From the NCBI GenBank assembly GCA_944331715.1, contig CALVIP010000003.1, positions 1 to 62,796 on the forward strand: a stretch of DNA of 62,796 bases, read 5' to 3'. The DNA is from an uncultured Bacilli bacterium (GTDB lineage Bacteria > Bacillota_I > Bacilli_A > RF39 > UBA660). A program made the translations under genes and the position numbers. Below the pieces are notes generated by a model. It searched no databases. It was not told the origin of the DNA and was given only the letters and a program-made list of their open reading frames with translations. Below, one piece after another: positions 20,451 through 57,950 of this stretch; position 1 is the first letter of the stretch; each line of letters begins with the position of its first letter.

Positions 20451-20537
20451 CAACTATTATTTTACTACAAATTATAAAGATGTCAAATTATTTTTATAAT
20501 AAAACATATTTTCTATTAAAAAATGTATCTTGTTCGA

Positions 20538-20566
20538 TTGACACGATATAATACATATGTTATTCT
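20538..20566 (+). promoter_or_regulatory. Promoter of type I TA locus 1 toxin mRNA
   Basis: TTGACA-17-TATTCT. Confidence 0.7.
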
Positions 20567-20637
20567 TTAAGCAGGAATACCTAGTATGGGTGTTTTGCCT
20601 CTTTCAAAACTCTAATATTCAGGGGGAGAAAGGGGAA

Positions 20638-20712
20638 ATGTCTATGAGTAAGAAAGATTTTCTAATTGCATCATTAGTAATAATAATTATACTTCTGATT
20701 ATTTATAGATAG
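20638..20712 (+). CDS. Type I toxin-like hydrophobic peptide, locus 1 (22-24 aa)
   Basis: (MS)MSKKDFLIASLVIIIILLIIYR*; RBS AAAGGGGA; flanked by AGGAATACCTAGT (20573-20585) and ACTAGGTATTCCT (20789-20801). Confidence 0.75.
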   Translation: MSMSKKDFLIASLVIIIILLIIYR

Positions 20713-20865
20713 TAAAACGCCCTATTACAACTTTGTAATTAGGGTGTCTATCAAAAAACTTTTTTTTGAGGTAACACCCAAATGGCAAACTAGGTATTCC
20801 TCTTTTTTATAATATGTAAATTCTCTTTACATATTCATATTATCATAAATAATTAATTTTATCAA
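20713..20865 (-). ncRNA. Convergent antisense antitoxin RNA and its promoter, locus 1
   Basis: TTGATA-17-TAATAT (20837-20865), 5' hairpin AATATGTAAA/TTTACATATT, ends at hairpin CACCCTAATTACAAAGTTGTAATAGGGCG-TTTT. Confidence 0.65.
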
Positions 20866-20899
20866 GATATTAATCGTTGCAAAAAAGTATCATTTAATC

Positions 20900-21108
20900 T
20901 TTGCAACAGTATAAACATATGATATACTTTAAATGCAGTAAATGAGTGACATCTCATATAAAGATAAAAGAGGTTCACACTACTCCTTTAAAAAGTGTAT
21001 ATAAAGAGGTTGACGTTACTCCTAAAAAACGTATAAAGGTTCACACTATTCCTATAAAAGTGCATAAAAGTATAAGGGCGATACCTCTATTGGTATTACC
21101 CTATTTTT
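20900..21108 (+). ncRNA. Array A: promoter, leader, three degenerate ToxI-like pseudoknot repeats and terminator; no toxin gene follows
   Basis: TTTGCA-17-TATACT; leader ATGAGTGACATCTCAT (20942-20957); repeats 20964-21000, 21001-21032, 21033-21063; terminator 21075-21108. Confidence 0.7.
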
Positions 21109-21150
21109 ATTATTAAAAAGTAGAAATCATCAAAAAAGTAACATTTTTTC

Positions 21151-21369
21151 TTTACAACAATATAATCTTATGATATACTTTAGATGTATTAAATGAGTGA
21201 TACCTCATATAATAACAAAAGTCGGAATTCCCTTGCCACAGTAGGGAGCTAACAAAAGTCGGAATTCCCTTGCCATAGTAGGGAGCTAACAAAAGTCGGA
21301 ATTCCCTTGCCACAGTAGGGAGCTAAAAAACATGGGCGATTTTCATTTAGAAAGTCGTCCTTTTCTTTT
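21151..21369 (+). ncRNA. toxI: Array B: ToxI/AbiQ-type antitoxin RNA, 3 x 37-nt repeats, with promoter, leader and terminator
   Basis: TTTACA-17-TATACT; leader ATGAGTGATACCTCAT (21193-21208); AACAAAAGTCGGAATTCCCTTGCCA(C/T)AGTAGGGAGCT at 21214, 21251, 21288; terminator 21334-21369; toxN directly downstream. Confidence 0.9.
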
Positions 21370-21390
21370 ATTACGTAAGGGGGATTATTT

Positions 21391-21891
21391 ATGAAAACAC
21401 TTAAAATATACTATATTGATGAAAATTATATTAAATATTTAAGAAAATTTGATAAGATAGTACCGTATAATAAGACTCATACAAGACCATATATTGGTGT
21501 TGTATATGAATATAATGGGATTAATTATTTTGCACCTTTATCTAGTCCAAAACAAAAACATATAACAATGAATGAAAATGCTCTAGATATATTTAAAATC
21601 AATGATGGAATTTGGGGAATAGTTAATATTAATAATATGATTCCTGCTCCTACCTATTGTTTGACTGAAGTACTTCCACAAGTAAAAGATGAAAAGTACA
21701 GAAACTTAATATTAAATCAAACTAATTATTTAAATAGACATAAGTATAAATTACTATCTAAAGTTAAACAGTTTAGATTACGTTATGATAAAGGGTATTT
21801 ATCTAGCAGATTAAGAAAAAGATGTTGCAACTTTAAATTATTAGAAGAAAAATGTATGGAATATGAAAACTTAATACTAGAAACTAGTTAA
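21391..21891 (+). CDS. toxN: Type III TA endoribonuclease toxin, ToxN/AbiQ family
   Basis: IYYIDENYIKYLRKFD, RPYIGVV, YFAPLSSPK, NINNMIP, CCNFKLLEEKC; canonical repeats-terminator-toxin layout. Confidence 0.92.
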   Translation: MKTLKIYYIDENYIKYLRKFDKIVPYNKTHTRPYIGVVYEYNGINYFAPLSSPKQKHITMNENALDIFKINDGIWGIVNINNMIPAPTYCLTEVLPQVKDEKYRNLILNQTNYLNRHKYKLLSKVKQFRLRYDKGYLSSRLRKRCCNFKLLEEKCMEYENLILETS

Positions 21892-21912
21892 GAAAGAGCT
21901 TTATTCTCTTTC

Positions 21913-22782
21913 TTATTTTTCACTTCTCGCTTCATTTAAAAGAGTATCAAGTGTTACTAAAGTAAAACCTCTTTGTTTTATATAGTTTATTAATACTTTT
22001 AATTCAGATACATTAGACTCAGTTAATTTAATACTTATAATACTACCACTTCTTAAGTTACCTTTAGCACTACTATAAATATTACTATCTAGTCTTAAAG
22101 TAGGTATAATAGTATGCATAGATAACTTACTACATAAATTTAATACTTCTTCATTATCATAAGTTGCATAACAGTATTTAGTAGTAGTACTAGTAAGTGT
22201 TTTTATCTTATCAATAGATGCTTTAAATAATAGTTCATCATAAGCTTTATCATAACTAAGTACTTCTACTTCATTACCATTTACTACTGCATCCGTTACA
22301 AATGATGTATTACTATCAGTAAATTTACCATCTATAAAAAATGTACCTACTACTCCCATATCTTTTAATATATTTAATAAATTATCTATATAACTGCTAG
22401 TATCAACTGCAAAGACTAAAGCAATGTTGGTACTTATGCCATTACCACTAGAAATATACTTGTCATAATAATCATCTATCGATATAGTAGGTTCCACTTC
22501 TTCAAAGACTAATAGAGCATCATTATAACTACCATACCCTTTCATCTTGGTAAAGCTTTCTTCTAAATCTATAACAAGACCATTATATCCTGGTATTAAA
22601 TAATCCCCTTCTACCTTAGCATTAAGTGCATCTTCTTCTAAAGTACTCCCCTTATCTTTTATTTCTTTCATAATAGGATCATTAGATTCTAATAGTACAA
22701 TTGCTTTCTCAGTATAATAAAAAGAAAAAAGAACAAGTAACATAACAAATATTACTTCTATAACCTTTTTAATAAGAACCAC
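21913..22782 (-). CDS. Polysaccharide deacetylase-family protein, degenerate active site
   Basis: N-terminal TM, GTFFIDG, GNEV, LRSGSII; TFDD replaced by VFAVD. Confidence 0.7.
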   Translation of the reverse strand: MVLIKKVIEVIFVMLLVLFSFYYTEKAIVLLESNDPIMKEIKDKGSTLEEDALNAKVEGDYLIPGYNGLVIDLEESFTKMKGYGSYNDALLVFEEVEPTISIDDYYDKYISSGNGISTNIALVFAVDTSSYIDNLLNILKDMGVVGTFFIDGKFTDSNTSFVTDAVVNGNEVEVLSYDKAYDELLFKASIDKIKTLTSTTTKYCYATYDNEEVLNLCSKLSMHTIIPTLRLDSNIYSSAKGNLRSGSIISIKLTESNVSELKVLINYIKQRGFTLVTLDTLLNEARSEK

Positions 22783-22819
22783 CTCTATAAAATTTTATTA
22801 TAGAAATGAATAAATTATT

Positions 22820-24901
22820 CTAAGGATATAGAGTAAAATATGCATCACTTGCTCTTTTACTAATTCTTCTAGTAACTAAAGTTGAATAACTGTTTCTTGG
22901 ATTTTCCCAAGTAGAATCTGGACTTGTTACTGTTATAGACATCTTAGGACTACTTGATGGTGCATAACCTACAAAAGCAGTTGAAACTGTATCGGTATCA
23001 TTAATATCATCATCATTAGTATCTGTAGCACTTTGACTTGTTCCTGTCTTACCTGATGGATCATGAGAATCATCTATATAACCTACTCCTAAGCCATAAC
23101 TTTTATTCATAACAGCATAGAATCCTTCTTTAACTCTATTTAAATATTCAGGAGTTGTATTAACAGTATTTAAAACATTCTTCTCAAATGTATATATTAC
23201 ATCTCCTAAACTCTCATCATCAGTTGAAGCATGAACTTCTTTTAATAGATGAGGTTGCAATCTACTACCACCATTGGCAAAAGTTGAGATATACTGTGAT
23301 AACTGGATTGGTGTATATGTATCATATTGTCCCATTACAAAGTCAAGTAAAAGTCCAGGAGCTTTATTACTACTAGTATAGCCTAAAGACTCTACTGGTA
23401 AATCTATTTCAGTTTCAACACCAAGTCCAAACTCTTTAAAAGTATTTCTATAAATATCAAAAGCACTTTCATTAATTACTAATGGTTTGTTATATTGATA
23501 AGTTGCCCCTGCTACTTTCATCGCTGTTTTAAACTGATAAACATTACTAGATAATGCAAGAGCATCTATATCATTAATTCTCCCTAATGTCCTCCAAGAA
23601 CATTTCTGTGGTGTTCCTGCTATTTTAATACATTCATCTACTTGATAATCCCCTGGTTTAATAGCACCTGTATTATATCCTACTAACATACTAGCACCTT
23701 TAACAACAGAACCTGAAGTCATAGGATCAGTCATAATACCTGTAGTACAATCTATTGTTTTATAACCTCCATTACCATCACTAACCGCTTGTCTTCCTGC
23801 CATGGCAAGTATCTCTCCTGTATTAGGATCTTGAATAATAGCATAACTTCTATTGTAATATTCTGTATTTGGTTGTCCTTTAGTAGCAAGTATTTCTTCA
23901 TTTAATATCGCTTCTAATTGTTGTTGTAATTCTATATCAATAGTAAGTACTATATCATTACCTCTCTTACCTTCACTAACTAGTTCTAACTCATGAGAAT
24001 TAACTGTCTTATAAATAGCTTTTGTTCCTTTTAAATATTCTTCATATTGTTCTTCTAAATAACTAGTACCAACTATATCATTTAAAGAATACCCTTTAGC
24101 AAGATACTCATCTTTCTCTTCACTAGGAATATCACCAACATTACCTAAAATAGTTCTAAAAGTATCTCCATAATTATAAACTCTTTCCCAATCTAGTTTT
24201 GTATTAAATCCTGGTAAGTCTTCATTATTCTCTGCTATATAAGCATATTCTTCATCAGTTACATCTTCATTTTTAATAACTTTATCATCATAAGAGTATC
24301 CTTTATTCATCAAATAATATAAATAACTAGCACGTATTTCTTCTTCTGTAAAAGCATTTAACTCTTCATCAGTCACTCTTTCTATTTTAAGTTCATATAT
24401 ATCATCACTATCTAATTTTCTTTGTTCATACTTTTCCCATTCTTTATCAGTTATTCTATCATCCATATCACTACTATTCTTAGCGACAAAAAACTCTCTT
24501 TTATTTCTATCAGATACTTTATCATAATCTAGACTAAGATGACTAGAAACAAGATATGCAAGTTCTATTTCTTCTTTAGTTCCTCTACTTTTATCTTTAT
24601 TATAATAAATTGTCTTAACTGCTTTATTATCAACTATTACTTTTCCATTACGATCAAGTATTCTACCACGTGGTGAACTAGGTCCTTCTACTACTGTAGT
24701 AGCAAGAGTTGTAAGTTCTTCTTCATAATATGCTTGTTCTCTTAACATTACATGATAAAGTCTAAGGGTTATTACTAAAAATAAAACTACTAAAACACTG
24801 CCTAAAAAGAAGAATCTTTTCTTATAAGTATTTCTATTAACAGTATATTTTCTTTCTCTTCTATTAATGTTTTTCTTATTAACTTTCTGTTTTATCTTCA
24901 T
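22820..24901 (-). CDS. Class B penicillin-binding protein
   Basis: TM anchor, RGRILDRNG, GSVVK (SxxK), SSN, KTG. Confidence 0.92.
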   Translation of the reverse strand: MKIKQKVNKKNINRRERKYTVNRNTYKKRFFFLGSVLVVLFLVITLRLYHVMLREQAYYEEELTTLATTVVEGPSSPRGRILDRNGKVIVDNKAVKTIYYNKDKSRGTKEEIELAYLVSSHLSLDYDKVSDRNKREFFVAKNSSDMDDRITDKEWEKYEQRKLDSDDIYELKIERVTDEELNAFTEEEIRASYLYYLMNKGYSYDDKVIKNEDVTDEEYAYIAENNEDLPGFNTKLDWERVYNYGDTFRTILGNVGDIPSEEKDEYLAKGYSLNDIVGTSYLEEQYEEYLKGTKAIYKTVNSHELELVSEGKRGNDIVLTIDIELQQQLEAILNEEILATKGQPNTEYYNRSYAIIQDPNTGEILAMAGRQAVSDGNGGYKTIDCTTGIMTDPMTSGSVVKGASMLVGYNTGAIKPGDYQVDECIKIAGTPQKCSWRTLGRINDIDALALSSNVYQFKTAMKVAGATYQYNKPLVINESAFDIYRNTFKEFGLGVETEIDLPVESLGYTSSNKAPGLLLDFVMGQYDTYTPIQLSQYISTFANGGSRLQPHLLKEVHASTDDESLGDVIYTFEKNVLNTVNTTPEYLNRVKEGFYAVMNKSYGLGVGYIDDSHDPSGKTGTSQSATDTNDDDINDTDTVSTAFVGYAPSSSPKMSITVTSPDSTWENPRNSYSTLVTRRISKRASDAYFTLYP

Positions 24902-24981
24902 ACCTATAACACCCTCTTTCTTTACTAGTTTATCACATAATTTTAATTTTACTACATATAAATTAAATAAAGGAGAAAAAA

Positions 24982-25230
24982 ATGATAGAGAGAATAATAA
25001 AAAATAATATTAAAGTATTAAATCCCCATTTAGTAATGGGATACTTAGAAAGTAAAAATATTTATCCTACAGAAGATGAAGCGATTATTATTTGTAATTT
25101 TTTAAAAGAAAACTATAATATTTTATTAAAAGATAACAGTATTTTACTTAATTTAAGAGGAAATATCAGAGATGATATATATAGTGGAGTGTCAACTATT
25201 ATTATGAATTTAAAGAATACTTATCTATAA
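24982..25230 (+). CDS. Small hypothetical protein (possibly DUF2624-like)
   Basis: 82 aa; RBS AAGGAG. Confidence 0.6.
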   Translation: MIERIIKNNIKVLNPHLVMGYLESKNIYPTEDEAIIICNFLKENYNILLKDNSILLNLRGNIRDDIYSGVSTIIMNLKNTYL

Positions 25231-25271
25231 AAAGAAAACTATGATATAATTTATCATAGGAGAGATAATAT

Positions 25272-25709
25272 ATGAATAGAAAAGGATTCACATTAATTGA
25301 GTTACTCGCTACTATTGTAATAATGGCTTTAATACTTATTATGGTAATGCCTTCTATTACGGCTTTAAGAAATAACAATGAAAAAAAACAGTATGAGTAT
25401 TATGGCGATAGTTTAGTAGAAGCTGCTAAAATATTTGTTAATAAAGAAGGAGAAGATATTACTTCTTTAGGTACTTTAAACTTCATTGGATGCGTTGATA
25501 TAACCTATCAAGAACTTATTGATGCTGACTTAATTGAACCTTTTACAGAAGAAAATATAGATTGTAGCAATGCTCTTATTAGATATACAAAAGAAAGAAA
25601 AAAAGAAAGTTATAGCATTAACTTAACTTGCAAAGATACAAAAACAAATAAAGTTTTATATCAATCAGATGACATTCCTGATTCTACTTGTACTGTTACT
25701 GCTTACTAA
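25272..25709 (+). CDS. Type IV prepilin-like protein
   Basis: RKG/FTLIELLATIVI prepilin peptidase motif. Confidence 0.85.
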   Translation: MNRKGFTLIELLATIVIMALILIMVMPSITALRNNNEKKQYEYYGDSLVEAAKIFVNKEGEDITSLGTLNFIGCVDITYQELIDADLIEPFTEENIDCSNALIRYTKERKKESYSINLTCKDTKTNKVLYQSDDIPDSTCTVTAY

Positions 25710-26553
25710 CACTTCTAATTAAAGCTATTTCTTCTTTATAAGGAGCATGACCATCTATATAAGGTGTTTCTAATATTTTAGGAACATCTTTTAATTTATC
25801 ACAATCTATTACTTTTATTAAAGTATCTAAACCTATAGTACCTTTATCTATATTTTCATGTCTATCTTTATGAGATGCAATTATATTTTTACTATCATTA
25901 ATATGAATACATTTAATTTTATCTATACCGATAAGTTCATCAAAAGTTTCTAATATCTCATCAAAGTTATTCAAATCATAACCAGCATCATTTAAATGAC
26001 ACGTATCTAAACAAACACCAATTCTATTCTTTTTAGAAACTCCATCTATAATAGATTTTAACTCTTCAAAGTTTCTTCCTACTTCACTACCCTTACCTGC
26101 CATAGTTTCAAGTAAAATCATGACATTACTATTATCTTTATCTAAGACAAGATTAAGGGCTTTAATAATATTAGAAATACCTACATCTACTCCTTGCCCT
26201 ACATGAGAACCTGGATGTAAAACTAAATATTTCATACCAAAGGTATCAACACGCTTTAACTCTTCACTTAAGAAATTACATGAAAAGTTAAATTTACTTT
26301 CATCACCATTTGCAAGATTAATGATATAAGGAGCATGAACTATAACATTATCTTTATCTATACCATTATCTTTCATCATAGAATAAGCTTTCTTAACATT
26401 ATCTAAGTCTATACTACTCCTAATAGTATTTTGAGGAGCACCGGTATAAAACATAAAGGTATTTGCCCCATAACTTATAGCTTCTTCTACACTTCCAACC
26501 AAACCACTATCTTTTTTATATCCTACATGAGAACCTATTATTAACATAAACAT
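25696..26553 (-). CDS. nfo: Endonuclease IV
   Basis: VHAPYIINL, VLHPGSH, ETMAGKGSE, CLDTCH, HINDSK, DRHENI. Confidence 0.95.
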   Translation of the reverse strand: MFMLIIGSHVGYKKDSGLVGSVEEAISYGANTFMFYTGAPQNTIRSSIDLDNVKKAYSMMKDNGIDKDNVIVHAPYIINLANGDESKFNFSCNFLSEELKRVDTFGMKYLVLHPGSHVGQGVDVGISNIIKALNLVLDKDNSNVMILLETMAGKGSEVGRNFEELKSIIDGVSKKNRIGVCLDTCHLNDAGYDLNNFDEILETFDELIGIDKIKCIHINDSKNIIASHKDRHENIDKGTIGLDTLIKVIDCDKLKDVPKILETPYIDGHAPYKEEIALIRSVSKQ

Positions 26554-26627
26554 CCTTCTTTCTAAAAAAGATTATATAAGGAGAAAAGAAAAAACGTCAA
26601 GAGTTTTGACGTAAACAACTGATTTAT

Positions 26628-27758
<1,131 letters not shown>

Positions 27759-27765
27759 CTACAAG

Positions 27766-28849: not shown

Positions 28850-28858
28850 AACTTCCTC

Positions 28859-30723: not shown

Positions 30724-30736
30724 AGCATCATCCCTC

Positions 30737-30885
30737 TTGAAAAAATTAATTATTTATGATAATATGAATATGTAAAGAGAATTTACATATTATAAAAAAG
30801 AGGAATACCTAGCTTTGAGCTGTTAGGTACTACCCCATTATTGTTTGGTTAGTACCACTCTAAGGAGTAGGTACTATTTTTATTA
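30737..30885 (+). ncRNA. Antisense antitoxin RNA and promoter, type I locus 2
   Basis: TTGAAA-17-TAATAT; 77-nt block differs from locus 1 at one position; terminator AGTACC...GGTACT-ATTTTT at 30851-30884. Confidence 0.65.
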
Positions 30886-30961
30886 ACATAAATAATAAGA
30901 TTATTATTACGAAAATAAGCGAAAATATGATATAACATAGAAATTTTTCAAGTTTTCTCAT
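30860..30961 (-). CDS. Type I toxin-like peptide, locus 2 (33 aa)
   Basis: MRKLEKFLCYIIFSLIFVIIILLFMLIKIVPTP*; RBS GAAAGGGGA; promoter TTGTAT-17-TATTAT (31039-31067); 5'/3' arms 31020-31032 and 30801-30812. Confidence 0.72.
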   Translation of the reverse strand: MRKLEKFLCYIIFSLIFVIIILLFMLIKIVPTP

Positions 30962-31108
30962 ATTATCAGTTCCCCTTTCACATTATAAAAATATAAGTTA
31001 GGGGGATAGTACCTAAACAACTAAGTATTCCTAGGTAAATAATAACACAAATGTATCTTCAATACAAGCGAACAAGATACATTTTTTATGAATTTTATAT
31101 TAAAATTA

Positions 31109-31388
31109 TTGAAGCAATTAAATCTTTATGCTAATATGAATATGTAAATTTTCTTTACATGAGGAGTACTTAGTTTGCGTTTGGATGTTACCCCAAAAAA
31201 CAGGTTGAATATACTAATTAATAGAGAATTTTACTATCTATAAATAATTAAAAGAATAATAATTATTAATAAGATAACTATTAAGAAATCTTTCTTACTC
31301 AAAAGTAAGTACAAATTAATTTACACCATTCGTTACTAAGTATTCCTAAGTAAATGATAGTCTAAATGTATCTTTAAAACAAGATACA
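31109..31388 (-). pseudogene. Type I TA locus 3, apparently decayed paralogue of locus 1
   Basis: TTG-SKKDFLIVILLIIIILLIIYR* at 31234-31302; no RBS; antitoxin terminator hairpin shortened; both promoters retained. Confidence 0.6.
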
Positions 31389-31393
31389 TTTTT

Positions 31394-32617
31394 TTATTTA
31401 TCAGTCCTATGTTTAGTATAAGTTTTCATTTTATTTATAAAATCATTATTTTTACTTATAGTATCTTCATCAAAAGATTGCCCATACATATTAAAGTAAT
31501 TTTCATATAAACACGTTAAAAAGATACAATAATTTATAAAATTATCTTTTCCTAAATTATTATTAATATAAGAAATGCTATTATTAATTGCAGAATAATC
31601 AAATAGTTCTCTATAATTATCTAATAAAGGATTAACTAAAGATAGATATAAATCATAAGCACTCTTATAAGAAATATTATTATTATCATCTAAATCAAAG
31701 ATATAAATATTATCCTCCCTTAATCTTTTAAATAAACTTCTCGCTTTTTCCTGTGTTCTAAACTCATTAAAGATACTATAATCTTTATTTATTATAAAAC
31801 TACAATGTTTATCACCCATTTCACTTACATGTATAAGTTCATGTAAAAGATTTATATCAAGACATCTATCATGATATTTTTTTAAAAGTGGAAATGAAAT
31901 AAAAGTCTTAGAATACTCTTTAGATAGTGATGTAATAGCAGTTACATCACTATCAAAATCTTCTTCAAAATAAACTATCTTTCTTGCAAGAAGTATTTTC
32001 TTATAAAAAGGTATATCCCCTAATCTATCTAAGATATTTTTACCAAAGATAGAGCTTTTTATAACATTTCTCTCTAATACTTTCTCTTGTCTTTTTAAAA
32101 AGTCTATACAATCATCTAGTTTTTCTTCATCTAATAAAGGAATAATTCCTATTCTTTTACAAGTATCTATATAATCTTGTTGTAATTCTAAAAGTAAGTC
32201 TCTTACTTCATTATCATAAGTTAAATATTTTTTATATTTTTTATCAAAAGCATCAAATCTAAGTCCTAGAATAGCTTCTTTATTTTTATTAAATACATCA
32301 TCACTAATATTTAATAGTTCTTTTAAATATCTAAGAGTATAATCATCTATTTCATCTTGTAACTTTTCTCCCTTACTCATATAGTCATCCATTAATGATT
32401 TATAATATTTTAAATTATCTAAACTACTATCTAAATTATACAAGCTTTCATAAGTAACATCAGGAGTTGAATCAAAGAAGTAGAAAGCATCTTTAATTCT
32501 TGTAGTGATTAAGTCTTTAAAACTTTTATGATAGGAACTAGCAATTAAATCTATTAGATAATCTTGATATTCTAAAAATCTCTTGTTAGGGTTTAATAAT
32601 CTATCTAAGTCTTTCAT
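31394..32617 (-). CDS. Hypothetical protein with HEXXH...NE zinc-peptidase-like motif
   Basis: LLHELIHVSE...IFNEFRTQ; start overlaps the obg stop. Confidence 0.65.
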   Translation of the reverse strand: MKDLDRLLNPNKRFLEYQDYLIDLIASSYHKSFKDLITTRIKDAFYFFDSTPDVTYESLYNLDSSLDNLKYYKSLMDDYMSKGEKLQDEIDDYTLRYLKELLNISDDVFNKNKEAILGLRFDAFDKKYKKYLTYDNEVRDLLLELQQDYIDTCKRIGIIPLLDEEKLDDCIDFLKRQEKVLERNVIKSSIFGKNILDRLGDIPFYKKILLARKIVYFEEDFDSDVTAITSLSKEYSKTFISFPLLKKYHDRCLDINLLHELIHVSEMGDKHCSFIINKDYSIFNEFRTQEKARSLFKRLREDNIYIFDLDDNNNISYKSAYDLYLSLVNPLLDNYRELFDYSAINNSISYINNNLGKDNFINYCIFLTCLYENYFNMYGQSFDEDTISKNNDFINKMKTYTKHRTDK

Positions 32618-49231: not shown

Positions 49232-49233
49232 AA

Positions 49234-49899
49234 TTATATAGCAAGTTTCTCTAAAGCATTTTTAGCAGCTAGTTGTTCTGCTTCCTTCTTACTGCTTCCT
49301 ACTCCTTCTCCATAGATAATACCATCTACTCTTACTTGCATTTTAAATGTTTTATCATGAGGAGGACCTGACTCTGAAATTAGTTCATAATAAAGACTCT
49401 TTTTAGTGGTTTGAACTGCCTCTTGTAAAGCAGATTTATAATCTGAGAAAAATGTTACATTAGGATTAGTAACATAAGGGACTATAATATCTAAAATAAC
49501 TCTTCTAACAGTGGCATAGCCAAGATCTAAGTAAATAGCACCCATAAAAGATTCAAAGATATCAGCAACTATAGCTTTCTTTAGTTTACCTCCATGTAAT
49601 TCCTCACCATGTCCTACTTTTATATAGTTATTTAGCCCAAGACCTAAAGAGTACTCATATAAAGCATTTTCACATACATAACTTGCTCTTACTTTAGTCA
49701 TAGTACCTTCATTTTCATTATGGTTACGATATAAGTAATCAGCCATGACTAAATCAACAACAGCATCTCCTAAAAACTCTAATCTCTCATAATCTTTTTT
49801 CGCTCTATGTTCATTAGCATATGATGAATGAGAAAATGCTACTTCATAAAGTTTTAAATTTTTAGGAGTTATATTTAATTTTTTAAATAATTCATCCAT
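49234..49899 (-). CDS. rnc: Ribonuclease III
   Basis: ERLEFLGDAV, ADIFES, dsRBD DYKSALQE...KKEAEQ. Confidence 0.97.
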   Translation of the reverse strand: MDELFKKLNITPKNLKLYEVAFSHSSYANEHRAKKDYERLEFLGDAVVDLVMADYLYRNHNENEGTMTKVRASYVCENALYEYSLGLGLNNYIKVGHGEELHGGKLKKAIVADIFESFMGAIYLDLGYATVRRVILDIIVPYVTNPNVTFFSDYKSALQEAVQTTKKSLYYELISESGPPHDKTFKMQVRVDGIIYGEGVGSSKKEAEQLAAKNALEKLAI

Positions 49900-50251: not shown

Positions 50252-50323
50252 AATGGTCCCTCTTTCCATACTTATTATACATAAATTTAAGACAAAAGAA
50301 AAGTAGTATTAAAAAACACATAA

Positions 50324-51538
50324 CTACATGTGCTTCTTATAATCAGAATCATTATTTTGTTTCATTTTTTCTAAATCATCTCTCATAATATATAATTCAA
50401 TTAAAATAATTACTCTTACATAGTCTTTATCTTCTAGCATTGAAGCAATTCCTCCAATTCTAGAAAGTTTTTTTAAACTTTTTATATAATCAAAAACTTC
50501 GTTATAAGTACTAGTAATAATTATTTTCTTGTGAGCATCTTTTTCTGATATAAATTGTTTTATATAATCTTGATGAACTGCTCTTCTCAATTCTCCTATA
50601 TGGTCTTTAATTATTATCATTTCTTCAATCATATTAATTTCATCATTAGTTTTGGAAAAAAGCTGTCCCTCATCAAAGTTTGTTTTTAAATTTATATATT
50701 CTTGAACGATTTCATCATCATCTGTTTTTTCTACTTTATCTTTTAGATCATTAATTTTATTTTGTAAGTAAAATGCTTGGGATATAAGCATAGCAATTTC
50801 TTCATTAATATCATTAAAGTAGTCCTTAACTATAGTAGAGAAATCTTCCAAATTTTGATGATGCCATTCAAGAATCTTGTTATATGCATTTTTCATTGTT
50901 GTATCTATCTCTGCTTTTGCAATATCATATCCAGCATAATATTTGTATTTTTCAGTTAATACTTCTATTTTTCTTAAAATTTCATTTTCAATACTATATT
51001 TTTCTTTTATACTTAATAATTGTTCATAAAATTCATCAAAACTACAGTTATAATTAACCCTATTAGTAACTTCTTTTTCATCAATATTATATCTTTGATA
51101 AAATTCATTTTGAAATTTTAAATACACTTTTAATATCTCTGTAAGTGAATTATTATAAGAACAATCAACTTCTCTAACTGTATTATACATTTTTGTTCCA
51201 AAAATTCTAATAATTTCATTTATATAAAAAACAATATTAGGAAAAAGTTGTCCATATTTTTTTATTTGATATTTCTTTAATCCTTCTATTTTCTCCAACT
51301 TATAATTTAAAACTAAATCTATATTTTCTTGATAATCACTTCTATCTTCGCTGTTTAATAATGTTTCATAGGCTATATTTATTTGTTTTAACTTCTCTTC
51401 AGCTTTTTTTCTTTCTTTATCATCTTTAAAATTATCTGGATGATATTTCTTTGCTAATTTACGATAAACTATTTTAAGTCCTTTTTCATCGTAACTACCA
51501 CTAATTTCTAAAATGCTTAAAGCCTCATAAACTGTCAT
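50324..51538 (-). CDS. J-domain protein with long helical C-terminus
   Basis: YRKLAKKYHPD...KLKQINIAYETL. Confidence 0.8.
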   Translation of the reverse strand: MTVYEALSILEISGSYDEKGLKIVYRKLAKKYHPDNFKDDKERKKAEEKLKQINIAYETLLNSEDRSDYQENIDLVLNYKLEKIEGLKKYQIKKYGQLFPNIVFYINEIIRIFGTKMYNTVREVDCSYNNSLTEILKVYLKFQNEFYQRYNIDEKEVTNRVNYNCSFDEFYEQLLSIKEKYSIENEILRKIEVLTEKYKYYAGYDIAKAEIDTTMKNAYNKILEWHHQNLEDFSTIVKDYFNDINEEIAMLISQAFYLQNKINDLKDKVEKTDDDEIVQEYINLKTNFDEGQLFSKTNDEINMIEEMIIIKDHIGELRRAVHQDYIKQFISEKDAHKKIIITSTYNEVFDYIKSLKKLSRIGGIASMLEDKDYVRVIILIELYIMRDDLEKMKQNNDSDYKKHM

Positions 51539-51656
51539 AATACTTGTCCCTTTCAGATTGTTTCATATTATATAATAAAATATGGTAACTGTCAAATTTA
51601 CAGTATCAAAAAAGAAGATTCTAAGTCTTCTATTTTTATTAAATATAGTTTTACTA

Positions 51657-52448
51657 CTATTCAAGATTTAATTTATTTTTAAGAATATAGTTAGTTATAG
51701 GAGTAATTATCGTTGTAATGATAATTACAAGTCCAATTAGTATTCCAAATAAGATATTAACTGATGATATTATTCCTATTTCATTATCTAGGCTTCTTAC
51801 AAAATCTGGATTAATTGTTCCAATAAAGACAAGAGCGAAAGTAAAGTACATCTCATAGATAACATAAAGAATGATGTAGGCAAGAAAACTAAAGCCTAGT
51901 TTATTAGTATTTTTTAATTGTCCTAAAGCGATAGATAAATAACATACAGCAAGTCCTGAAATATAGGCTACTATCATAAGAACTGCCATAAGGATAAACA
52001 TAATTACTCCATCCATTGGTATATCTTTAAAGAAGTTAGCAACACCATTTGCAAAACTACTCCATTCTCCATTACCTATTACTAGTATTATAATAGATAT
52101 AAACATAACAACAATACTTGATAACATAGTAGTTACACTTGTTATAAATTTAGATGTTATTATAGTACTTTTCTTAACAGGTAAAGTATTAATCAAATAT
52201 CCTCTTTCAGTGGCAAAATCTAAATAGAAATCTCTAATACTTAAGAAAAATGTTCCTATTACTAATACCATTAATATTACAATATAACTTAATATCATTA
52301 ATCCATTTAAAGTAGAAAATAAATTAGATGTATCACTTAAATTATTAAGGATAACTGTTAATATAGTAATAACTAATGTAATTAGATATATTGGTAGTAA
52401 AGTCTTATAAAGATTTTTAAAATCATATTTTAATAATTTACTTAACAT
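51657..52448 (-). CDS. ABC transporter permease
   Basis: Six TM segments, RGYLINTLPV. Confidence 0.85.
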   Translation of the reverse strand: MLSKLLKYDFKNLYKTLLPIYLITLVITILTVILNNLSDTSNLFSTLNGLMILSYIVILMVLVIGTFFLSIRDFYLDFATERGYLINTLPVKKSTIITSKFITSVTTMLSSIVVMFISIIILVIGNGEWSSFANGVANFFKDIPMDGVIMFILMAVLMIVAYISGLAVCYLSIALGQLKNTNKLGFSFLAYIILYVIYEMYFTFALVFIGTINPDFVRSLDNEIGIISSVNILFGILIGLVIIITTIITPITNYILKNKLNLE

Positions 52449-53137
52449 TTAAATTCCTCTCTAAATAAATCATTAATAGACATATTAGTTTCTTTTCTAA
52501 TATCATCTGTACTACCACTTCTTACGACTTTACCATTCTTTAAAAATATAACTTCATCTAATACTTTCTCTAAATCACTAATTAAGTGAGTTGAAATAAG
52601 TAGTGAAGCATCATTACTAAAATTAGTTAATATTGTATTAATGATATAATCTCTTGCAGCAGGATCTATCCCACCAATAGGTTCATCTAAAATATATAGT
52701 TTCGCTTTCCTACTCATAACAAGTATTAATTGTACTTTTTCTTTAGTACCTTTAGACATTGTCTTTAATTTCTGATTTAAATCTAGATCTAACTTACCTA
52801 TTAACTCTTTCGCTTTATCTATTCTAAAGTCTTCATAAAAGTCTTTAAAATAGTTAAGTAACTCTAATACTGTCATATTATTATTTAAATAATTTTTATC
52901 AGGTAAGTAAGAGATTAACTTCTTAGTTTCAACTCCAAGGTCTAGTCCTTCTACTTTAATAGAACCAGAATCTTCTTTTAATAAATCATTTATTAATTTG
53001 ATAAGAGTTGTCTTTCCACTACCATTAGGTCCTAAAAGTCCTACGATTTTACCTTTAGGAATGCTAAAAGTAACATCATCTAATACTCTATTAGCACCAT
53101 AACTTTTACTTACATGACTAACTTCTAATAAAGCCAT
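52442..53137 (-). CDS. ABC transporter ATP-binding protein
   Basis: GPNGSGKT, MSKG, LDEP. Confidence 0.92.
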   Translation of the reverse strand: MALLEVSHVSKSYGANRVLDDVTFSIPKGKIVGLLGPNGSGKTTLIKLINDLLKEDSGSIKVEGLDLGVETKKLISYLPDKNYLNNNMTVLELLNYFKDFYEDFRIDKAKELIGKLDLDLNQKLKTMSKGTKEKVQLILVMSRKAKLYILDEPIGGIDPAARDYIINTILTNFSNDASLLISTHLISDLEKVLDEVIFLKNGKVVRSGSTDDIRKETNMSINDLFREEFKC

Positions 53138-53496
53138 TAAATTTCACTCTCCTTTAGTATTTTCTTAATATCAGCATCACTATATCCTAAAGATTTTAAA
53201 TTATTAATAAAATCTTGATATAGACTCTTTGCAAGTAATCTTTTCTCTTTTAAGATAAACTCTCTATTTTCAGTAACATATTTACCACTAGTTCTAACTG
53301 TATAAATAAATCCCTCTTCTTCTAAACCTTGTAAAGCTTTCTGCATTGTATTAGGATTTACTTGATATTTAAGAGCAAAGTCACGAACAGAAGGTATTTT
53401 ACTGCTAGGTAATAACTCTCCTTTAAATATCTCTTTCTTAATTATTTCTTCTAGTTGTAAATAGATAGGTTTATCATTATCAAAAACATAACTTAT
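53137..53496 (-). CDS. GntR (YtrA-subfamily) regulator
   Basis: PIYLQL, PSVR, VNPNTMQKA; start inferred at ATA 53496 behind RBS GAGGTG. Confidence 0.85.
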   Translation of the reverse strand: MSYVFDNDKPIYLQLEEIIKKEIFKGELLPSSKIPSVRDFALKYQVNPNTMQKALQGLEEEGFIYTVRTSGKYVTENREFILKEKRLLAKSLYQDFINNLKSLGYSDADIKKILKESEI

Positions 53497-53513
53497 AATT
53501 ATCACCTCTTTTT

Positions 53514-53562
53514 TGTATTGCTTGCTTAATACAGTTATACAATAAACATATGATAATGTCAA
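53514..53562 (-). promoter_or_regulatory. Promoter and YtrA-like operator
   Basis: TTGACA-17-TATAAC followed by TGTA-N12-TACA palindrome. Confidence 0.65.
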
Positions 53563-53631
53563 GAAAATTATTATTTTAATTGAACTATTTATAATCCTTA
53601 GATATAATAAATGACATAAGGAGAAAAACGT

Positions 53632-55197
53632 ATGACAAAAAATGAATTAAGACAGAAAATAGGTATTAAAGATATATATAGAAATGATGATTATACTTTT
53701 GTATATTTAGATAATGAACAAAAATTATTAGTTAAAGATGAGAAAATATATGATATTTCCGAGTATGACTCTTTTCATAAAGTTATTACTATGAATAATA
53801 TAGATTATGTTCTTGTATCTAAAGACTATTCTTTATCTTTAGTTAATTTAGAAACTAAAGATATAGTCTTTGAAGATGACAAAGCCTATGAGGTAAATAA
53901 GGTAGATGATAAATGTCTAAAAGTAATTATGAAAATAGGTGGTGGTGATGATAGTATTTATAACATTGAGACAAAAGAATATTTAAGTATCCCTACTGAT
54001 TATGAATTTGAACATTCTTTAGAAAATAATTTATATGTTTATAGTGAAAAAAGCAAAAATTTTGAAAAAGAGTTTTTAGATAGAAAAAGAGTTGTTCTTA
54101 ATGCTAATGGTAAAGTATTATTAAAAGATATTACAGGTTGGATTAATTATTGTGGTAATTATTTAGTAATTAACAATGATGATAAAATAAGGATTATTAA
54201 TTTAAATGATAAAGGTAACATAGAAGAAAAGACAGTAGAATTTAATAAAAACTTACTTATTAAGCCAATATTTTATGATGAAAAAATAGTATTAGTTAAA
54301 AATGAATTAATAGAAATATATGATTTAGATTTAGAGTTAATTAACAGTATTGAAGTAAATGATTTAAATAACGTTGTAGATTATGAACTTACTAACAACA
54401 CATTAAAATTTTGTATTTCCTATCAAGCTACTAATAAATACCTTTTTGTTAATTTAAAAAATGGAAAGACTATCTCTCATGTTAGAATAGAGCCATATCC
54501 ATGGTGGATTCCTACTACTTATATAGGAAGAGAAAAAATAGATGATGAAGAACAAGACTATTACTTTTATGATGAAGAATTTAATTTAAGAAAGAAAATA
54601 AATGGTAAAAAGGTTTATAGCATTGACTGTAAAAAAGAGTGTATGTTTTATATAGAAAGTGATAATAGAAAACAATTTCTTAATATGGAAACAGGCTTAC
54701 TAAAAGATGTTCCTTATGATTATATGTATTTTCATTTATCCCTTCCCTATGGTTATGGAGTAAACTTTGATACAGAAACGATGGACTTTTTTGATGAAGA
54801 GTTAAATGTCATTATAAAAGATTTTAATTATAAGAAATATAATATAAGCCCCTCACACACAGAGTTCGGTTATTTTATAATAAAGGATTATCTATGTATT
54901 TCAAAACATGTTGTTGATGGTCGTGGCTTATCTCACTTTAGAAAAATAATTGAAAGAAACGGAGGACAAGTTATATTAGATGCCTATGACTGTAAAATTT
55001 ATCCTTTAGGTAACTATATTCAAATAATTAAAGATGGAGAGACTAAATATTTTAATACTGAAGTTGATAAGTTTACTCCCCTTTCTATCATGGCTCCTGT
55101 TAATGAAAAAGGAAAAATAGATATTACTGAACAATCTACTTTAAAAGAATCTTTATCATTAATAGATAAAGGATTTCAAAAAACTAAGAAACTATAA
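53632..55197 (+). CDS. Hypothetical beta-rich repeat protein
   Basis: 521 aa; RBS AAGGAG; repeated short beta-like units. Confidence 0.7.
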   Translation: MTKNELRQKIGIKDIYRNDDYTFVYLDNEQKLLVKDEKIYDISEYDSFHKVITMNNIDYVLVSKDYSLSLVNLETKDIVFEDDKAYEVNKVDDKCLKVIMKIGGGDDSIYNIETKEYLSIPTDYEFEHSLENNLYVYSEKSKNFEKEFLDRKRVVLNANGKVLLKDITGWINYCGNYLVINNDDKIRIINLNDKGNIEEKTVEFNKNLLIKPIFYDEKIVLVKNELIEIYDLDLELINSIEVNDLNNVVDYELTNNTLKFCISYQATNKYLFVNLKNGKTISHVRIEPYPWWIPTTYIGREKIDDEEQDYYFYDEEFNLRKKINGKKVYSIDCKKECMFYIESDNRKQFLNMETGLLKDVPYDYMYFHLSLPYGYGVNFDTETMDFFDEELNVIIKDFNYKKYNISPSHTEFGYFIIKDYLCISKHVVDGRGLSHFRKIIERNGGQVILDAYDCKIYPLGNYIQIIKDGETKYFNTEVDKFTPLSIMAPVNEKGKIDITEQSTLKESLSLIDKGFQKTKKL

Positions 55198-55230
55198 CAA
55201 AAAGATGCTTTCAAAATCATAAGCATCTTT

Positions 55231-56820
55231 TTAATTCTTTAATTTAAAAGTTTTAGGGGCATAGTAATATATTAAGATTAAAGATATTATAGAATAAAGT
55301 ACTACAAAGATTATCATAATGATTCCAAAGATAAATGAAGACACCTCTATTTTTGAAATATAGTAACACGCCCAATAAGTTATTATACTTGCAATTGTAT
55401 AAGTAGTACTTTTCATTTCCATTCCAATATTATAAGGTTGTAACAAATAATATAAGACTAAGTTATGAATAGAAAAGAAAATAGACATTGAAATAATTGA
55501 TAGTATTATAATTATATAATTTATTGGATTAGTTGTCCCACCACTTAAATATAATAGTATTGCAAGAATTAAAGCAAGAACTGTAGTTGGTAATAAGTTA
55601 ATAACTATTACAGTTTTAAGTCTTTCTTTAAATAAAGATAAAACTATCTTAGGTTCCCTATAAAACCTATAGAATAACATAGAATGATCACAGTTCATAA
55701 ACATAGCATTAGTAATATTTTTACCAGTATTAATAAAATACATTAAGAATAACATATAAGGTAAAAGTAATAAAGCAAATGTATTAATACCTTGTTTTAA
55801 GACAGGAATAAAGAATATAAGTATTCCTAAAACTATTCCTATTATCAAGATAAACATAGTCGTTTTTTTAGCACTATCAATTAAGATTTTCCTATGACGT
55901 TTTACAAATAAATCGTGAAAATAAGCGAAACCACTCTTATCACTAGTTATACCCTTATCAAGAGTAATCTGTTCTCTACTCGTTTTAGTAATTAATTCAG
56001 TATTATTAGAAGTATTTGTAACAAAAATATTATCTTGTTTTAATAATTCTTTACATAGATATTGATAATTATTATAAGTTAATACTTTTCTAAAAGATAT
56101 TATTCCTAATATTAAAGTAATAATAAAAACTATATAGAAAACATTAACAGGTATTACTAAATTATAGTATGGTAATAAATACCCTATTAATAAAAGTGCT
56201 ATTATTAAACCAAAGTATAAAGTCCAAGACTTAGGTTTATTCTCATTTATAATGATATTTTTCTTTTTCATGCGATAAAAATAAAATACTACAGCAATTG
56301 ATTTAACACTTACAGTAAATAATACTAACATTAGGGCTTGATACCAAGTAATAACATTAAAGAATAATAGTATTAAAGATACTAATTGTCCTATAACAGT
56401 ACTTCCTAAAAAATAAATAAAGTTAGGAATAATATAGTCTTTCGCCCTCATTTTCATTAAGACTATTAAATAGTATTTATCTCTTGTGGGATTGAATATT
56501 TCTGTATTAGAAAAACTTCCAATTAAGGCTAGAAATATATAAATATGTATTATGTAACTAACATCAAAACCTTTATAAAGAGTTAAAGGTAATAACAAGA
56601 ATATATATATGTATAGTAGTTTATAACCAAAAGTCCTAATTATTTCTCTTATAATAAATATTATAAAACTAATTACTTTAAAACTATTAAAGCTATAGAA
56701 CTTAGTAGGTATTATTTTACCTATTAAAGGTAATTTACTAATACCATAGATAATCTGATTAACAGTATAAGCATTCTTTACTTTTAAAGATATTAAAAAG
56801 TTATTAAGCATCTTCTTCAC
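55231..56820 (-). CDS. Multi-TM ABC permease
   Basis: About 12 hydrophobic segments; coupled to an ATPase gene. Confidence 0.8.
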   Translation of the reverse strand: MKKMLNNFLISLKVKNAYTVNQIIYGISKLPLIGKIIPTKFYSFNSFKVISFIIFIIREIIRTFGYKLLYIYIFLLLPLTLYKGFDVSYIIHIYIFLALIGSFSNTEIFNPTRDKYYLIVLMKMRAKDYIIPNFIYFLGSTVIGQLVSLILLFFNVITWYQALMLVLFTVSVKSIAVVFYFYRMKKKNIIINENKPKSWTLYFGLIIALLLIGYLLPYYNLVIPVNVFYIVFIITLILGIISFRKVLTYNNYQYLCKELLKQDNIFVTNTSNNTELITKTSREQITLDKGITSDKSGFAYFHDLFVKRHRKILIDSAKKTTMFILIIGIVLGILIFFIPVLKQGINTFALLLLPYMLFLMYFINTGKNITNAMFMNCDHSMLFYRFYREPKIVLSLFKERLKTVIVINLLPTTVLALILAILLYLSGGTTNPINYIIIILSIISMSIFFSIHNLVLYYLLQPYNIGMEMKSTTYTIASIITYWACYYISKIEVSSFIFGIIMIIFVVLYSIISLILIYYYAPKTFKLKN

Positions 56821-57511
56821 CTTTTAAGATATTAATTATTTTATTCTTTAATTCTTTATCTGTTAGTTCATCTCTTTTTATTTCTAAAAGTTCCCCCTTA
56901 TTTAGAACTACTATCTCATCACATAAATCTAGAGCAAGTTCCATAATATGAGTAGAAAAGATAAGAATTCTATTCTTTTTCATTTTCTTTAATAACTCTT
57001 TCATCTCTTCTGCTACTACAACATCAAATGATGTTAAAGGCTCATCTAATAATAAAATATTAGGACTTGCTATTAAATAGATCAACATCTGCATTTTATT
57101 CTTCATACCATGAGAATAATCTTTCATAAGCTTATCTCTATCTTCTTTATCTATTTTAACTATATCAAAATATTCATCTATAGTTTTTAAGTCTTTAATG
57201 TTATCTTTATTAATATCTATAAAGTATTTTAAAAACTCTCTTCCTGTTAGAAATTCAGGTACTACAGGTGTTGATAGAACATAACCTATATCACTACTTT
57301 CTATTTTTTTATCAGACTTGCCATCACTTAAATAAAACTCTCCACTATCACACTTTAAATCTTCATTTAAGCAGTTAAAAAAAGTAGTCTTTCCTGCTCC
57401 ATTTCTTCCTAATAATCCATAAATCTTACCACTTTCAAAAGTAAAATTAATATTTTTAAGTACACACTTTTTATCAAAGCTTTTATTTAGATTTTCTATC
57501 ACTAACTTCAT
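56804..57511 (-). CDS. ABC transporter ATP-binding protein
   Basis: GRNGAGKT, YSHGM, LLDEP. Confidence 0.92.
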   Translation of the reverse strand: MKLVIENLNKSFDKKCVLKNINFTFESGKIYGLLGRNGAGKTTFFNCLNEDLKCDSGEFYLSDGKSDKKIESSDIGYVLSTPVVPEFLTGREFLKYFIDINKDNIKDLKTIDEYFDIVKIDKEDRDKLMKDYSHGMKNKMQMLIYLIASPNILLLDEPLTSFDVVVAEEMKELLKKMKKNRILIFSTHIMELALDLCDEIVVLNKGELLEIKRDELTDKELKNKIINILKGEEDA

Positions 57512-57717
57512 AATAACTCCTCATTTCTTTTTAAGTCTATCATAGATGAAATTAAATGACAATATCTATAATTTTTACTTAAAATTATATCTTATACAGT
57601 GGTAAAAATTACCAGTAAAAACTTTATATTTTTAATTGTTATAAGATATATAATATGTTACTATATATTTAGGAACATTTAATAGTTGGGTGGGGCCTCA
57701 GAAAGGAGGTCGATATA

Positions 57718-57801
57718 ATGAACAAGAAAAATTCATTGATCGTTGCTTTAGTAGTTATAATCCTTTTCCAAAATCTATTACTGCTTTTAGCTTTAATATA
57801 G
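57718..57801 (+). CDS. Type I toxin-like peptide, locus 4 (27 aa)
   Basis: MNKKNSLIVALVVIILFQNLLLLLALI*; RBS AGAAAGGAGG; promoter TTGTTA-17-TACTAT (57636-57664); arms 57670-57681 and 57875-57886. Confidence 0.75.
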   Translation: MNKKNSLIVALVVIILFQNLLLLLALI

Positions 57802-57950
57802 AAAAGCCACCTAACTCACAGCGTTGAATTAGGTGGAACAACAATTATATAGGTTTCACTCAACACGGTAATACTAAGTGTTCCTACTTTTTTATTTTAT
57901 GCAAATTTCTTTGACATATTAATAGTATCACAAAATATTATATTTTTCAA
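57802..57950 (-). ncRNA. Antisense antitoxin RNA and promoter, locus 4
   Basis: TTGAAA-17-TACTAT (57922-57950); terminator CCACCTAATTCAACGCTGTGAGTTAGGTGG-CTTTT. Confidence 0.6.

Follow-up and report, generated by a model that had tools for sequence, protein, structure and literature searches.

The analyzed stretch of DNA, called the window in the following, comprises 62,796 nucleotides (nt) of contig CALVIP010000003.1 from an uncultured Bacilli bacterium of the RF39 lineage. It contains four intergenic cassettes of one design, which is a gene for a small hydrophobic peptide combined with a convergent gene for an antisense RNA that would overlap the 3' end of the peptide messenger RNA (mRNA). 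This two-RNA, peptide-coding architecture is very well supported by the comparison of homologous loci, and the cassettes as a whole probably represent type I toxin-antitoxin systems. Transcription of both RNAs, toxicity of the peptide, decay of its mRNA and a biological role in selfish maintenance or abortive phage defence are what we infer from this architecture. The family appears to be undescribed, as judged from Rfam, Pfam, NCBIfam, phage and plasmid collections and the literature. Its novelty would be a predicted end-to-end lock of the toxin mRNA, similar to that of the hok and AapA mRNAs, with a 3' arm that is at the same time the target of the antisense RNA.

The four cassettes and their peptide gene

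An earlier note on this DNA had placed four loci of a common layout in the window, and reading of the stretches together with an alignment in one orientation bore this out. Locus 1 occupies positions 20517-20879 on the plus strand, locus 2 30727-31096 and locus 3 31103-31394, both on the minus strand, and locus 4 57613-57959 on the plus strand. In the direction of the peptide gene, a promoter of the type TTGNNN-17-TANNNT is followed at a distance of 8 nt by a 5' arm AGGAAYAYYTA, a purine-rich Shine-Dalgarno sequence (SD), a short hydrophobic open reading frame (ORF), a hairpin at or just past the stop codon, a 3' arm that is the reverse complement of the 5' arm, and a T-run. A short inverted repeat and a convergent TTGNNN-17-TANNNT promoter with a TGn extension on the opposite strand complete the cassette. 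All elements listed in the earlier note were present in each of the four loci, but the peptide start composed of SD and ATG did not hold for locus 3, which offers only a TTG. The strict pair of arms occurs six times genome-wide, each time inside such a cassette.

The toxin promoter of locus 1, TTGACA-17-TATTCT with TGn, was assigned by the promoter scan to positions 20538..20566 (plus strand), and the predicted mRNA starts with the 5' arm at 20573..20602 (plus strand), which contains AGGAATACCTAG, TGGGTGTT and CCTC. In the minimum free energy (MFE) and centroid folds this arm pairs with positions 20768-20801, with a cognate duplex energy of −37.4 kcal/mol. In the MFE fold, the SD GAAAGGGG (20628-20635, plus strand) forms pairs with CCTCTTTC on its upstream side. 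It is located 2 nt ahead of a first ATG at 20638 and 8 nt ahead of a second one at 20644. Because this spacing favours the second ATG and the homologues align there, the peptide is probably the product of the ORF MSKKDFLIASLVIIIILLIIYR (20644..20712, plus strand) with 22 amino acids (aa), the alternative start yielding 24 aa; the sequence is M(SM)SKKDFLIASLVIIIILLIIYR. A hairpin downstream of the stop codon (20718..20746), the helix of which covaries among the loci, is on the minus strand the antisense terminator SL3, followed by TTTTACT. The 3' arm, made of GAGG, AACACCCA and CTAGGTATTCCT, and the T-run are at 20768..20808 (plus strand). On the minus strand, the promoter TTGATA-17-TAATAT with TGn (20837..20865) would yield an antisense RNA of about 126 nt (20711..20836) with the elements SL1, A-rich linker, SL2, SL3 and U-run, predicted to form a three-hairpin fold of −37.0 kcal/mol.

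Locus 4 is organized in the same way. Its plus strand carries the toxin promoter TTGTTA-17-TACTAT with TGn (57636..57664), the 5' arm (57671..57699), which pairs with 57851-57885 in the MFE and centroid folds, the SD GGAGG (57705-57709), the ORF MNKKNSLIVALVVIILFQNLLLLLALI for a peptide of 27 aa (57718..57801) and the 3' arm with the U-run (57851..57894). The hairpin after the stop codon (57807..57836) equals the antisense terminator on the minus strand, and the terminator scan of this strand found 12 pairs followed by CTTTTCTATA, compared to 0.0 expected. The antisense unit (57800..57950, minus strand) consists of the promoter TTGAAA-17-TACTAT at 57950-57922 and the predicted RNA at 57921-57800, which reached 109 bits with R1, a covariance model built from homologues of the antisense RNA of locus 1.

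In locus 2, the −35 and −10 motifs of the toxin promoter (31062-31067 and 31039-31044), the 5' arm (31021-31032), the ORF MRKLEKFLCYIIFSLIFVIIILLFMLIKIVPTP (30860-30961), the hairpin (30850-30876) and the 3' arm (30801-30837) follow each other on the minus strand, opposite an antisense unit on the plus strand (30737..30881) with the promoter TTGAAA-17-TAATAT at 30737-30765 and the RNA at 30766-30881. Since the ORF runs into the hairpin, the antisense RNA would overlap the last codons. In this respect the earlier note, which had placed the end of the antisense transcripts at a hairpin at the stop codon, needed a correction.

Locus 3 retained the toxin promoter (31344-31372) and a 5' arm (31326-31337) on the minus strand, and an ORF-like frame (..SKKDFLIVILLIIIILLIIYR; 31234-31314, minus strand). 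On the plus strand, the antisense unit (31109..31235) begins with the promoter TTGAAG-17-TAATAT (31109-31137), and its SL1 is intact, but 12 nt of the A-rich linker are deleted and the predicted fold is weak, with −16.7 kcal/mol. Because the frame has no SD and solely a TTG start, locus 3 is probably a disarmed copy with both promoters kept.

Comparison with homologues from many genomes was based on 44 full-length loci, 43 predicted mRNAs and alignments of 41 sequences. The peptides of 22-33 aa share a short basic N terminus and one hydrophobic, membrane-spanning run of about 20 residues. An ATG-initiated ORF of 24-33 codons preceded by an SD was found at the same place in 40 of the 44 full-length loci; by our own arithmetic, with about 8% stops per random codon for the base composition given, an open frame of 27 codons should occur by chance in about 9% of the loci. 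In 19 ungapped ORFs of 27 codons, the entropies of the codon positions 1, 2 and 3 were 0.64, 0.23 and 0.81, and 879 of 1316 residue differences remained within the group ILVFMAC. This indicates that the ORF is under coding selection, with a pattern expected of a hydrophobic helix maintained by selection. One RNA scaffold is used by three or more peptide subfamilies, MNKKDFLI..., MKKRxFVIKVLRY...IKK and MRKLEKFLC...VPTP.

In the ORFs of the main subfamily (for instance L117:1515-1746, and C6:3825-4162 on another contig of the window's own genome), the I-F-L codons are conserved in the form AUC UUC CUU, with a high GC content by the standards of this genome. The UCUUCCUUU resulting from these codons pairs with the SD in many MFE folds and may be a second anti-SD, internal to the ORF.

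Both promoters are placed at nearly constant distances. The toxin promoter TTGNNN-17(±1)-TANNNT ends 6-13 nt, mostly 8 nt, ahead of the 5' arm in 43 of the 44 loci, 29 of them with TGn, and the antisense promoter keeps a fixed distance of 25-26 nt in 39 loci, with TGn present in 38 of these. The sigma-A-type promoters claimed before are therefore supported by their fixed position among homologues and not by the number of hexamers, which at a single locus do not exceed the chance level.

An additional hairpin with a T-run is located upstream of the toxin promoter (31360-31390 and 31047-31085 in the window, C6:4160-4200 on the other contig, and in homologues). Members of the main subfamily have GTTACGAAAATTCGTAAC and then TTTTTT at this place on the peptide strand, which would stop read-through from upstream genes; in the subfamily of loci 1, 2 and 3, the T-run of the hairpin ATGTATCTT...AAGATACAT belongs to the antisense strand and would stop read-through of the antisense transcript. 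Each cassette seems to be insulated at its two ends.

Predicted RNA structures on both strands

The predicted toxin mRNA has a length of about 225-250 nt, and its first 30 nt or so pair with about the last 45 nt in three stacked helices. In the MFE folds of the 43 predicted mRNAs, a mean of 24.5 of the first 30 nt was paired with the last 60 nt, and pairing also included about 7.7 of 10 bases in the SD region. The three intact mRNAs of the window reached −58.7, −73.6 and, in case of locus 2, −74.5 kcal/mol, with z scores of −4.1, −7.0 and −8.0 compared to dinucleotide shuffles, and the end-to-end duplex was present in the MFE and in the centroid fold of all three. RNAalifold, used on the alignment of 41 sequences, recovered helix 1 of the lock and the hairpin after the stop codon. 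The lock helices 2 and 3 and the inner part of SL1 were judged by folding of each sequence because the MAFFT alignments misplace them.

Of the alignment cells, 95.1% were paired, compared to 84.2% in shuffled controls (none of 500 as high) and 32-50% in controls with slid positions, and double changes occurred at 17 of 19 pairs. The duplex of the arms had an energy of −33.8 kcal/mol for cognate, −24.5 kcal/mol for non-cognate and −12.3 kcal/mol for shuffled arms, and it ended 0-3 nt ahead of the U-run in 41 of 43 loci. These data indicate that the pairing of the 5' with the 3' end is under selection, with compensatory changes and cognate specificity.

The predicted antisense RNA of 112-130 nt contains, in this order, a 5' hairpin SL1, an A-rich linker, a hairpin SL2 of 10-14 bp, the terminator SL3 and a U-run. 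SL2 is the complement of the 3' arm of the mRNA, SL3 that of the hairpin after the stop codon, and the complete RNA is fully complementary to the entire 3' untranslated region (UTR) of the toxin mRNA, about 100 nt. Nearly all of the 44 loci, locus 3 excepted, showed the three-hairpin fold. In the 41 sequences, 93.7% of the cells were paired, a value not reached by any of 500 shuffles, with 97.9% in SL2, which indicates that the structure of the antisense RNA is under selection, too. Since the sequence of the SL2 region nearly equals that of the mRNA 5' arm, the antisense RNA would compete with this arm for the 3' arm.

The distribution of wobble pairs is different on the two strands. In helix 1 of the lock, the cells that deviate from Watson-Crick pairing, about 39, are U-G or G-U in the RNA of the peptide strand; an RNA of the opposite strand would have A-C mismatches there. 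Two positions of SL2 are most often occupied by U-G pairs in the antisense RNA and would be mismatched in the RNA of the peptide strand. By energy, the peptide strand had the more stable 5'-3' duplex in all of the 43 loci compared (−33.8 vs. −27.8 kcal/mol), and the antisense strand had the more stable 3' hairpin in 40 of the 43 (−12.2 vs. −6.0 kcal/mol). Both strands thus seem to carry selected structure, and both RNAs look functional; this is the strongest argument for the two RNAs that can be drawn from sequence data, and the strand-specific wobble pattern is unusually clean evidence of its kind for structured RNAs from both strands, which makes the family well suited to test the detection of such modules in metagenomes.

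These results need to be considered also with respect to non-coding repeats, either miniature inverted-repeat transposable elements (MITEs) with the arms as terminal inverted repeats or terminator or insulator cassettes, in which the ORF and the antisense promoter would be incidental. Such elements would agree with the high number of copies, which are dispersed, about 350 bp long and equipped with inverted-repeat arms, with the flanking hairpins and T-runs, and with the usual position at the ends of genes. Inverted repeats at the DNA level would, however, show no strand asymmetry, so that the MITE reading fails: the wobble pairs are strand-specific, with A-C mismatches in DNA or on the other strand, and the peptide strand has the stronger duplex in every one of the 43 loci. 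The codon-position pattern, the SD and start kept in 40 of 44 loci, and a conservation reaching past the arms into two positioned promoters also speak against non-coding repeats, and the 65-80% identity of the copies to one another is different from the near-identity of recently active MITEs. The MITE was rejected due to the strand-asymmetric duplex energies and wobbles and the conserved ORF, and non-coding repeats in general are very improbable.

Another consideration concerns the end of the toxin mRNA. With a mean of −6.0 kcal/mol, the 3' hairpin is weak when formed by the peptide strand, since it is the antisense strand to which its sequence is tuned. The mRNA 5' end might serve as the upstream half of its own transcription terminator via the 5'-3' duplex of about 30 bp, an idea derived from the folding models that we regard as rather doubtful; the strand asymmetry and the distance of the duplex to the U-run would fit it without being a proof. 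If so, termination, burial of the ends and formation of an inert fold would be a single co-transcriptional event across a loop of about 200 nt, and the antisense RNA, which mimics the 5' arm, could control termination or read-through in addition to decay.

Copy number, spread and genomic dynamics

The window is one contig (C3) of a metagenome-assembled genome of a gut bacterium of the Bacilli with 1.16 Mb, 27% GC content and a completeness of 87.6%. While the earlier note described a family of four members, iterated nhmmer searches identified 18 copies in this genome with E values of ≤6e-27, ranging from 1e-27 to 1e-80, tandem pairs and partial copies included. This is one copy per 65 kb and 0.56% of the DNA. 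Of 101 genomes from the same taxonomic family that were searched by BLAST with locus 4, 51 contained relatives. The covariance model R1 matched 134 of 201 genomes, belonging to 68 of 98 genera, within this family, with up to at least 18 matches per genome. Within the genus of the window, which has reduced genomes of 1-1.5 Mb, the copy number varied between 0 and at least 18. In a class-wide sample of 401 genomes, 24 were positive, all from the same taxonomic family, and no R1 match outside of this family was found in that sample. The neighbouring genomes came from animal and human guts. The family takes up about 0.5% of genomes that are among the smallest of free-replicating gut bacteria, and about two-thirds of the genomes in an entire uncultured family of Bacilli from animal and human guts contain it.

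These numbers also bear on a chance resemblance of four loci in AT-rich intergenic sequence. Promoter-like hexamers as frequent as in shuffled sequences would agree with chance, but the nhmmer scores of the 18 copies, hundreds of homologues in the R1-positive relatives and the presence of covariation leave a practically negligible probability to this explanation.

Several observations indicate that the cassettes are gained, lost and rearranged. Locus 4 is present at the same site in two related genomes, G210 (99% identical) and G214 (89% identical). In the interval between ygjP and orf407, G210 contains one cassette and the genome of the window contains locus 2 plus the disarmed locus 3, so that locus 3 is absent from its site in the near-identical G210. 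In more distant congeners no cassette was found beside ygjP, where the neighbouring genes also differ or the contig ends, and exact boundaries of an insertion are not definable for this reason. Varying copy number, tandems, a disarmed copy and presence or absence at syntenic sites are, taken together, the behaviour of selfish elements, as deduced from the genome comparison.

Tandem arrays of three cassettes with a period of about 360-400 bp were observed in related genomes, namely in L115 (G059:C22), L135 (G092:C16) and at G086:C3:184241-185063, and some tandem arrays mix peptide subfamilies.

Loci 1 and 2 encode different peptides and share a block of 81 nt with 98% identity (20787-20867 and 30735-30815), which spans the 3' arm, U-run, SL1 and antisense promoter. 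This block suggests recombination or gene conversion between cassettes. The antisense RNAs of the two loci could each pair with about the last 19 nt of the toxin mRNA of the other locus, and the cassettes could form a cross-talking network instead of independent pairs, since the 5' modules of the antisense RNAs of loci 1 and 2 are identical.

Proposed mechanism and relation to known systems

In the type I toxin-antitoxin model, the sigma-A promoter would drive synthesis of an mRNA of about 225-250 nt for a membrane peptide of 22-33 aa. The end duplex, 0-3 nt ahead of the U-run, would bury both ends of this mRNA and the SD would be held in a local hairpin, so that the full-length mRNA is expected to be stable and poorly translated. 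The convergent extended −10 promoter would provide an antisense RNA of 112-130 nt, which may displace the mRNA 5' end from the 3' arm, open the lock and form a duplex of about 100 bp. By analogy with bsrG/SR4 and txpA/RatA, this duplex should lead to RNase III-dependent decay of the toxin mRNA. A gene for RNase III is present in the window (49234-49899, minus strand; PF14622, 115 bits). When antisense synthesis stops, the stable mRNA would be translated and the peptide would damage the membrane; a possible trigger of translation may be 5' processing that removes the anti-SD.

Two other mechanisms were considered and rejected. A translational switch, in which the antisense RNA refolds the SD region, did not agree with the partition-function model, in which the accessibility of the SD was the same in all modelled states. 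A second pairing site at the translation start, as in Fst and SprA1 systems, gave −16.0 kcal/mol compared to −14.2 kcal/mol for shuffled sequences; the complementarity of the antisense RNA to the initiation region did not exceed chance, with a mean z score of −0.64 and 7 of 43 loci below −2. Because SD refolding and pairing to the initiation region are unsupported, the decay mechanism of the Bacillus type is left.

Evaluation of this model needs to consider a number of points that weigh against it. The SD accessibility was 0.28-0.31 whether the mRNA was free, bound to antisense RNA or truncated at its 3' end, and a step that activates translation did not appear in the partition-function model. 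Promoter hexamers of a single locus are as frequent in shuffled AT-rich sequence, and the shuffle controls used for the structures ignore the kinship among the sequences. The loci are located among housekeeping genes and off recognizable mobile elements, with a threonyl-tRNA synthetase operon, a SpoU methylase with a YgjP-like peptidase, an ABC ATPase and a PHP-domain protein as neighbours in the window, and a search of phage and plasmid collections found no copy of the family.

Some of these points would agree as well with harmless small membrane proteins that have a physiological role, for instance as modulators of transporters or of the membrane, and are tuned by a cis-antisense RNA without addiction or suicide. 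The peptide shows coding selection, its genes have housekeeping neighbours, the SD stays occluded in the in silico model, in which no activating step is obvious, and many small hydrophobic proteins of Gram-positive bacteria are non-toxic. Nevertheless, this explanation is unlikely. Between 0 and at least 18 copies within one genus of reduced genomes, as well as tandems, a disarmed copy that retains its antisense gene and syntenic gain and loss, are features of selfish or defence modules. Moreover, several unrelated-looking peptide subfamilies use a common RNA scaffold, and elaborate locking of the mRNA ends is typical of toxin mRNAs. Should the peptides be toxic, as the type I model assumes, the family would be a marker of genome conflict in reduced genomes and a large untapped set of compact parts for kill switches and RNA regulators.

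The T1TAdb database lists 24 type I families (PMC8594479). Most knowledge of such systems comes from a small number of cultivated Proteobacteria and Firmicutes. None of the four peptides gave a match to a type I toxin family or any other meaningful match in Pfam and NCBIfam at E values of ≤10. No type I antitoxin family of Rfam was found in the window at the gathering score, and solely chance matches, for instance to snoRNAs, were found on the loci at E values of ≤10. A full-text literature search did not reveal a paper linking type I toxins to the RF39 lineage. The statement of the earlier note that peptides and scaffold belong to no named family is in agreement with these results.

The same is true for its assignment of the layout to the 3'-overlap type I systems of Firmicutes, in which a convergent antisense RNA covers the 3' end of an mRNA for a small hydrophobic peptide. 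An overlap on the 3' side is the class feature of txpA/RatA, bsrG/SR4, bsrE/SR5 and yonT/SR6 in T1TAdb (PMC8594479), and SR4 is complementary to the 3' end of the bsrG mRNA and promotes its RNase III-dependent decay (PMC3834814). All of them combine a short mRNA for a hydrophobic peptide with a convergent antisense RNA to the mRNA 3' end, and as predicted for the cassettes described here, the SD is in a double-stranded region. By layout, the family is placed with txpA/RatA and bsrG/SR4, without homology to them: no similarity to the antitoxin families of Rfam or the toxin families of Pfam and NCBIfam was detected. The peptides are shorter, 22-33 aa with a basic N terminus compared to 38 aa of BsrG, and the predicted antisense RNAs of 112-130 nt mostly end at the stop codon and do not overlap the ORF, unlike SR4 with about 180 nt. 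In contrast to the bsrG/SR4 group, the mRNA ends would be closed in a duplex of about 30 bp, the 3' arm of which is the antisense target. The loci of B. subtilis are mostly on prophages, SPbeta in case of bsrG/SR4, whereas those described here are chromosomal and intergenic, with up to at least 18 copies.

The end-to-end lock has its counterpart in hok/Sok of plasmid R1 and AapA1/IsoA1 of Helicobacter pylori, in which the mRNA is closed by long-distance pairing of its 5' and 3' ends, with a sequestered SD and alternative 5' hairpins. The same three features, pairing over a long distance in the full-length mRNA, SD sequestration and alternative local hairpins at the 5' end, are predicted for the cassettes. 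Those systems are from Gram-negative bacteria, and their antisense RNA targets the 5' or initiation part of a 3'-processed mRNA, not a 3' arm. Moreover, the antisense gene of the cassettes is opposite to the 3' UTR, other than in hok/Sok, and the two groups are not homologous, with no match to Hok in Pfam. Two principles hitherto described separately, the hok/AapA end-to-end lock and the 3'-overlapping antisense RNA of Bacillus, would be combined in one family.

Antisense RNAs that overlap the 3' UTR and not the ORF are also known from Fst/RNAII and SprA1/SprA1AS (PMC8594479). Fst/RNAII (par of pAD1) and SprA1/SprA1AS share with the cassettes the Gram-positive host, peptides of about 30 aa and this limitation of the overlap to the 3' UTR. 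The functional pairing of Fst and SprA1 is outside of the overlap, at the initiation region, where the cassettes showed nothing beyond chance, and their peptides had no Pfam match to Fst and no NCBIfam match, in contrast to Fst/Ldr toxins. Fst toxins typically have a charged C-terminal tail, which the peptides described here seem to lack.

Type I toxins of Clostridioides difficile are about 34-53 aa long, longer than the peptides of the window. CD2517.1/RCd8 and its relatives in this gut Firmicute are multi-copy chromosomal loci with a convergent antisense RNA overlapping the 3' end, often near defence loci (PMC5961336). A gut Firmicute as host, multiple chromosomal copies and 3'-overlapping antisense RNAs are common to both groups, and locus 1 is located beside a ToxIN locus. 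The C. difficile systems belong to a different lineage.

The ToxIN type III toxin-antitoxin locus (20900-21891) follows directly downstream of locus 1, so that two systems with RNA antitoxins adjoin each other; its ToxN is encoded at 21391-21891 (PF13958, E value 2.6e-41). The sole Rfam family found in the window at the gathering score was a T-box leader (RF00230, 109.7 bits) at positions 6480-6682 on the minus strand.

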